Below the pieces are notes generated by a model, which did not search any database, was not told where the DNA came from, and worked only from the letters and a program-made list of their open reading frames with translations. Both the position numbers and the translations under genes were made by a program. A stretch of DNA of 18,793 nt, from positions 1-18,793 of the forward strand of contig JBHIDR010000016.1 of assembly GCA_046760225.1 (NCBI GenBank), in the 5' to 3' direction. Below, piece after piece: positions 3,357-3,635 of this stretch. Source of the stretch: Candidatus Aenigmatarchaeota archaeon. GTDB lineage: Archaea; Aenigmatarchaeota; Aenigmatarchaeia; Aenigmatarchaeales; JACQIB01. Position 1 is the first letter of the stretch; each line of letters begins with the position of its first letter.

Positions 3357-3584
3357 TGGTGGGGCCAGAGAGATTCGAACTCCCCTCTGCGGGTATCACC
3401 CTGCGAAAACGCAAATACCCGCGTTTTCTTTCACAGCAGACAAAACGAAGTTGCTTTGCAACTTCAATTCGTCGCTCAACGCTCCACCATAAGTCTGGAG
3501 CCCGCCTTCAGGAAATACAAGAGAGCTTGTATTTTTATCCTACCTGGCTAGACTATGGTTCTGGCCTGAACAAATCAGGTCCCC
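3357..3584 (-). tRNA. tRNA-Trp(CCA) with three introns (4/5, 25/26, 37/38)
   Basis: Mature: GGGGCCA TA GTCT AGCCAGGTA GGAT G GCGGG CTCCAGA CCCGC AGAG GGGAG TTCGAAT CTCTC TGGCCCC A CCA (76 nt). Introns: 3559-3580 (22 nt), 3507-3536 (30 nt), 3395-3494 (100 nt). Anticodon at 3496-3498. Confidence 0.88.
3395..3494 (-). ncRNA. tRNA-Trp 37/38 intron, putative box C/D-type guide for Cm34
   Basis: Guide TGGAGC (3481-3486) is antisense to G31-A36. D'-like TTGA (3476-3479) places C34 at the N-5 position, followed by a hairpin and C'-like GTGAAAG (3428-3434) forming a K-turn. Euryarchaeal tRNA-Trp introns are known C/D guides. Confidence 0.6.
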
Positions 3585-3635
3585 ATCATTGCTGACCCCA
3601 CATGTTCTTATGATAAGAAGTGTGGACAATTGTTT

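Follow-up and report, generated by a model that had tools for sequence, protein, structure and literature searches.

The window, i.e. the whole stretch of 18,793 nt of DNA that was analysed, likely carries a functional tRNA-Trp(CCA) gene with three protein-spliced introns of the BHB type, the first of which interrupts the acceptor stem at position 4/5. The splice motif of this intron appears to be built in part from the 5' leader, and judged from the sequence the precursor would be spliced before its 5' end is matured. The gene occupies positions 3584-3357 of the minus strand. It was reported neither by ARAGORN, with or without the intron option, nor by Rfam at gathering or E-value thresholds. 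Since the first BHB scan alone was too permissive, the exon map was obtained from orthologs in related genomes; 41 relatives with genomes of 0.3-2 Mb were searched. The gene is composed as follows:

3584-3581, minus strand: exon 1, nt 1-4 (GGGG), belonging to a strand of 7 nt that is contiguous in orthologs without intron 1
3580-3559, minus strand: intron 1, 22 nt, position 4/5, comprising the inner hairpin CCTGA-TTTGT-TCAGG, the sequence CCAG (3564-3561) and the first two bases of the second bulge
3558-3537, minus strand: exon 2, nt 5-25, with C6, A7 and U8 at 3557-3555
3536-3507, minus strand: intron 2, 30 nt, position 25/26, common to ortholog G020
3506-3495, minus strand: exon 3, nt 26-37, containing the anticodon CCA
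3494-3395, minus strand: intron 3, 100 nt, canonical position 37/38
3394-3357, minus strand: exon 4, nt 38-73 plus the encoded CCA, with the 3' acceptor strand at 3367-3361 and A73 at 3360

All exons follow one another in order on the same strand, over a total of 228 nt. Joined in a script, they yield a 74-nt product that ARAGORN recognises as tRNA-Trp(CCA); it forms a regular cloverleaf with an acceptor stem of 7 bp, and none of its four stems is disrupted. The preliminary description of this DNA had placed the first intron at position 4/5, and this assignment is borne out: excision of 3580-3559 restores the 7-bp acceptor stem with TGGCCCC (3367-3361), and two orthologs carry the same intron.

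The window corresponds to contig C16 of a genome bin of 851 kb (83 contigs, 44% GC), and the sequencing runs containing its DNA are labelled hydrothermal vent metagenome; none of the runs found to contain the locus is an RNA run. The intron-bearing stretch is covered by contigs of four runs, all from one study and all of them DNA contigs. In three of the four the stretch is complete, with 0-3 differences; the window DNA may come from one of these three. The stretch is genuine DNA and no assembly slip. A co-occurring strain is represented in run X2 by a contig of low depth, which has 20 other letters in place of 53 nt of the 37/38 intron (3434-3486, an internal hairpin), while keeping the region of the 4/5 intron up to 3587.

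Upstream of the tRNA gene, an ORF with a Pfam methyltransferase match stops 51 nt before G1 (TAA at 3638-3636). Downstream, a HIT-family gene starts 14 nt past the tRNA CCA and is preceded by GGTGA (window 3357-3340). The tRNA-HIT gene order is conserved in three relatives (G001, G020 and G037), which suggests co-transcription.

The splice motif and the 5' leader

Only four exon bases precede the first cut, so that the splice motif must borrow bases of the 5' leader. The resulting BHB has the following elements, the slash in the bulges marking the border between exon and intron:

3589-3587 with 3557-3555, minus strand: outer helix, ATG (leader -5 to -3) with CAT (nt 6-8), 3 bp
3586-3583 with 3564-3561, minus strand: central helix, ATGG (leader -2 and -1 plus G1 and G2) with CCAG, 3 of 4 pairs
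3582-3580 and 3560-3558, minus strand: two 3-nt bulges on opposite strands, GG/A and AA/C
3579-3575 with 3569-3565, minus strand: inner helix, CCTGA with TCAGG, loop TTTGT, 5 bp

This site is listed by the BHB scan with helix values of h1=3, h2=3 and h3=5. The preliminary description had given ATGG and CCAG as the strands of the central helix. Its bases, bulges and helices stand as drawn, but the central helix has only three of the four pairs, A(-2) being placed opposite G in an A.G mismatch. As in archaeal motifs of the hBHBh' type, there are two 3-nt bulges with flanking helices on both sides, and excision leaves a canonical tRNA. Of 3000 shuffles of the 50-nt stretch that preserved its dinucleotides, 35 contained an equally good BHB at any place and none contained one in register. 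Pair probabilities calculated for the full precursor of the window genome assign about 0.02 to the central and outer BHB helices.

The 5' end is visible in 23 tRNA-Trp genes among the fetched loci, 14 from the order and nine from the rest of the class. The 5' acceptor strand is contiguous in 20 of these genes, while three carry the 4/5 intron, namely the window genome, G020 and G037. The latter two belong to another family of the same order; the intron is absent from G005, a member of the same family as the window genome. G001, which is of the same genus, was left out of this scoring because its contig begins at about nt 6 of the gene. In G020 the BHB consists of an outer helix of 6 bp, a central helix with 4/4 pairs and an inner helix of 10 bp; the corresponding figures for G037 are 7 bp, 4/4 pairs and 4 bp. 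None of 3000 shuffles gave an equally good motif in register for either of them. In both orthologs the outer helix pairs leader bases as far upstream as -8 or -9 with exon nt 6-11 or 6-12. The participation of leader bases in the central and outer helices, which had been claimed from the window sequence alone, thus holds for this gene and extends to orthologs with leader-to-exon outer helices of 6 and 7 bp.

Conservation of the leader in relatives had also been named as a check in the preliminary description. Indeed, G020 and G037 share the intron and the leader-built helices, and the helices show compensatory changes. In the three-way alignment 34 of 38 BHB cells are paired, as opposed to 13-40% when the partner strand is slid by 1-3 columns. 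Both sides have changed in four of 13 BHB pairs; two of these are leader-exon pairs of the outer helix (-4/7 and -6/9) and one is the pair of leader position -2 in the central helix. In a column-shuffle control, which is weak because it comprises only three related sequences, the observed covariation was reached in 58 of 500 shuffles. Pair probabilities predict the BHB helices of G020 and G037 only when the leader is present. The predicted dependence of the BHB on the leader is well supported by these comparisons. As the motif forms only with the leader, it is a sound inference that this tRNA is probably spliced before 5' trimming.

A strict pattern was used to look for more holders of the same architecture in one genome per species and in JGI metagenomes. 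These scans returned six stretches from the species genomes and three from the metagenomes, among which only the G020-type sequence, found once per scan, was relevant. The remaining matches were an unrelated Bathyarchaeia arrangement, again once per scan, and five irrelevant stretches (four bacterial records and one metagenome contig). Because the three known cases had served to define the pattern, the scans show only that this exact form is rare. A search with a D-arm pattern in 42 and then 371 genomes was unspecific. In a Bathyarchaeia-labelled record (L054) and a metagenome contig (L060), a tRNA 3' end with CGGGTCC-G-CCA precedes, by 34 nt, a 5' half that carries the matching strand GGACCCG, an arrangement that may represent either tandem copies or a permuted or split tRNA.

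A spare acceptor strand and the proposed order of processing

Further upstream, the leader contains a second element, and two TATA-like boxes precede it:

3640-3633, minus strand: distal TATA-like box CTTAAAAA, overlapping the methyltransferase TAA stop; a good box, of putative use
3616-3609, minus strand: proximal, weak TATA-like box TTATCATA, 24-25 nt before G1; likewise of putative use
3600-3592, minus strand: spare ("decoy") copy of the 5' acceptor strand, TGGGGTCAG, located in the leader and complementary to nt 65-73

The element TGGGGTCAG comprises a copy of the 5' acceptor strand and a preceding T that is able to pair with A73. The leaders of all three intron holders contain TGGGGT plus two bases at 10-20 nt upstream of G1, the individual spacers measuring 10, 14 and 20 nt. 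In minimum-energy folds of the full precursors, the spare strand pairs with the 3' acceptor strand over 9 bp in the window gene, 6 bp in G020 and 8 bp in G037. A leader run of at least six bases complementary to nt 66-73, located within -45 to -6, is present in 3/3 intron holders and in none of the 17 intronless Trp genes scored, in which the longest such run is five bases; three loci were dropped from this scoring because their T loop was not recognised by the script. Due to their shared descent, the three holders do not count as three independent events. Scrambling of the spare strand changed the predicted BHB helices little. In G042 (locus L042), the 7 nt of the tRNA-Trp 5' strand occur a second time, without any mismatch, 52 nt upstream of the gene and beyond the scored range; the acceptor strand of this gene is contiguous and lacks the 4/5 intron.

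Whether these leader elements could act in RNA is tied to the position of the promoter. The box CTTAAAAA, if used, gives a leader of roughly 24 nt, and TTATCATA, if used, almost none. The main rival reading accordingly has transcription begin some 0-3 nt upstream of G1, in keeping with the start that the spacing implies at the other tRNA genes. The BHB would then be reduced to its central and inner helices, as a relaxed motif, and the outer-helix and spare-strand complementarities would be untranscribed relics of the intron's origin. Most tRNA genes of this genome have, by eye, a TATA-like 8-mer whose end lies about 25 nt ahead of +1, which is the spacing of TTATCATA from G1 (24-25 nt), and TATA-like 8-mers are also seen by eye at -33 to -26 in G020 and G037, where the sequence is AT-rich. 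However, the proximal box differs from those of the other tRNA genes in that its core contains a C and its upstream side is rich in pyrimidines. Moreover, the compensatory leader-exon changes at -4/7 and -6/9 and the 6-7 bp outer helices of the orthologs would be hard to explain for untranscribed DNA, and the TGGGGT block has been kept although its distance from G1 differs among the holders. The compensatory changes argue that the leader is RNA, and we consider a short leader unlikely.

For the longer leader, which we prefer, the following course of events is proposed. Transcription would start upstream of the spare strand, either from the distal TATA box or by read-through from the methyltransferase gene. 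The spare strand TGGGGTCAG would pair with the 3' acceptor strand and A73, so that G1-G4 are left free. The BHB could then form, and the splicing endonuclease would cut after G4 and before C5, whereupon RtcB would join the exons. The 5' strand, now contiguous and offering seven Watson-Crick pairs, would displace the spare strand with its six Watson-Crick pairs and one G.U, and introns 2 and 3 would be removed via their own BHBs. Removal of the leader by RNase P would come last. The genome encodes the enzymes named: it has two EndA paralogs, one of 163 aa and one of about 177 aa, both comprising the N- and the C-terminal domain, as well as RtcB (497 bits) and an archaeal RNase P RNA (113 bits). 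As RNase P RNA is encoded, a leader has to be removed by RNase P.

In this model the spare strand probably serves to free G1-G4 for the splice motif. More tentatively, and with slightly more doubt than confidence, we propose that the pre-tRNA leader is a programmed folding device. The conserved spare strand would hold the 3' strand and A73 while the real first four bases enter the motif, and after ligation the real strand would take over and RNase P would act, the splice-first order thus being written into the leader itself. The proposal includes recurrence of the device at a tRNA-Ile and a tRNA-Phe gene with an 8/9 intron in the same genome. These are tRNA-Ile(GAU) on contig C12 (3908-4025, minus strand) and tRNA-Phe on contig C4 (minus strand; ARAGORN 24635-24830), which have an identical leader, 5' strand and 23-nt intron at position 8/9. 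Their leader carries GGGCGAG five bases ahead of GGGCGGG, and when the C12 precursor is folded, it is the leader copy that pairs with the 3' strand, whereas the real strand is paired with the intron. As modelled by this fold, the tRNA-Ile gene is an independent case of the spare-strand design, unrelated to the Trp gene. The identity of the whole module of leader, spare strand, 5' strand and intron in the Ile and Phe genes suggests copying between tRNA genes. Another multi-intron tRNA gene, on contig C2 (about 34282-34546, minus strand), has two copies of the 5' acceptor strand 7 nt apart, GCCTCGG followed by GCCCCGG, with TATA-like boxes at the usual distance from each copy.

Relation to known tRNA processing

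Non-canonical BHB introns, up to three per archaeal tRNA gene, are well known, as summarized in a review (PMC4090602). The rarity of introns in the acceptor stem, which the preliminary description had asserted, agrees with this review, where the extreme case is an acceptor-stem intron at position 3/4 found in some Thermoproteales (Sugahara et al. 2008, cited therein). As far as this intron is covered there, it resembles intron 1 of the window gene in being a protein-spliced hBHBh' intron in the 5' acceptor strand, in being one of several introns and in having a host with two EndA paralogs. It differs in that the window gene has its intron at position 4/5, is of isotype Trp and resides in a 0.85-Mb DPANN-like vent archaeon rather than a crenarchaeon. 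Leader pairing indicated by covariation and the spare acceptor strand are features of the window gene that we did not find stated for the Thermoproteales 3/4 intron in the review.

Split and permuted tRNA genes, described for Nanoarchaeum equitans, Caldivirga and Cyanidioschyzon, form their BHB from leader and trailer sequences (PMC4090602, PMC4033280). According to these accounts they share with the window gene that sequence outside the mature tRNA forms one side of the motif and that trimming of the ends must follow splicing. Unlike them, the window gene is colinear and in one piece, and its leader pairs in cis with the intron and the downstream exon. tRNAscan-SE 2.0 extends its candidates by 60 nt of flanking sequence to find the BHBs of introns close to the ends (PMC8450103), which implies that end-proximal motifs reach into flanking sequence; we found no discussion there of the order of processing or of a spare strand. 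For Methanopyrus kandleri, trimming of the tRNA ends is reported to precede the removal of introns (Su, Tripp and Randau 2013, PMC3695527). The window genome would employ the enzymes that act there, RNase P and the splicing endonuclease, whereas the motif of the window gene, as predicted, requires the opposite order. In full-text searches of the literature we found no description of an intron in cis with a demonstrated need for the leader in its motif, and none of a spare acceptor strand.

If the proposed reading is true, the substrate would be incomplete without its leader, which is usually seen as disposable, and this would be one of the few genes whose own sequence reveals the order in which the tRNA is processed. 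It would also offer a simple and testable model for how an intron is tolerated in the acceptor stem, an element that RNase P, the CCA-adding enzyme and the synthetases all need intact. Since standard finders miss such genes, as ARAGORN and Rfam did here, the tRNA sets of small archaeal genomes look incomplete when they are complete.

A second tRNA-Trp gene, the upstream copy and the 37/38 intron

A second tRNA-Trp(CCA) gene, intronless and with a normal cloverleaf, is located at 28102-28175 of contig C2 (plus strand), and the GC content of C2 equals that of the genome. The three-intron gene may therefore be neither essential nor the sole source of this tRNA. The C2 gene has no TATA box upstream, and a Shine-Dalgarno-like sequence with an ATG lies directly 3' of it. 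Its presence, along with the matching GC content, could be taken to mean that the C2 gene does the decoding while the three-intron locus is a decaying redundant copy, no longer processed into tRNA and surviving perhaps only as host of the guide-like 37/38 intron. This is highly improbable in our view, as the four stems of the spliced product are intact and the anticodon stem covaries among the orthologs (GCGGG/CCCGC, GATGG/CCATC and GCTGG/CCAGC). The order with the HIT gene has likewise been kept in G001, G020 and G037, and a search for the C2-type gene in five relatives gave partial matches only, at 75-83%.

Hardly credible is the idea that the upstream GGGG(TCA) represents the true exon 1, followed by a 37-nt intron at 4/5 (upstream GGGG) or at 7/8: although GGGGTCA (3599-3593) can pair with TGGCCCC with one G.U, and although the upstream copy of G037 is identical to the real strand, the BHB scan lists no motif that joins 3596 or 3593 to 3559 or 3556, the upstream copy of G020 (GGGGTGA) fails to pair with the 3' strand at positions 6 and 7, and the proximal site has a full BHB in 3/3 genes. 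A mature 5' end reading GGGGUCA had been named beforehand as an outcome that would speak against the leader-dependent motif, and the evidence favours the proximal 5' end instead.

The functional three-intron gene thus remains our preferred reading, and its third intron has features of its own. By eye, parts of the 37/38 intron (3395-3494, minus strand) are complementary to nt 31-37 and 38-43 of the tRNA that harbours it, and complementary stretches are likewise seen in seven relatives (G001, G011, G016, G020, G021, G024 and G030). A CTGA/TTGA-like box comes next to each stretch on its downstream side, and GATGA-like boxes follow, in the window as well as in loci L003, L002, L010 and L031, again by eye. 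The intron of euryarchaeal pre-tRNA-Trp is a box C/D guide for positions 34 and 39, a type in which the guide stretches adjoin D/D' boxes and the C/C' boxes form K-turns. The layout seen here looks like a circularly permuted form of such a guide for the same two positions. Read in this way, it would resemble the euryarchaeal intron in having complementary stretches within a 37/38 intron and differ from it in that, with boxes assigned by eye, the second box pair of the window genome looks degenerate.
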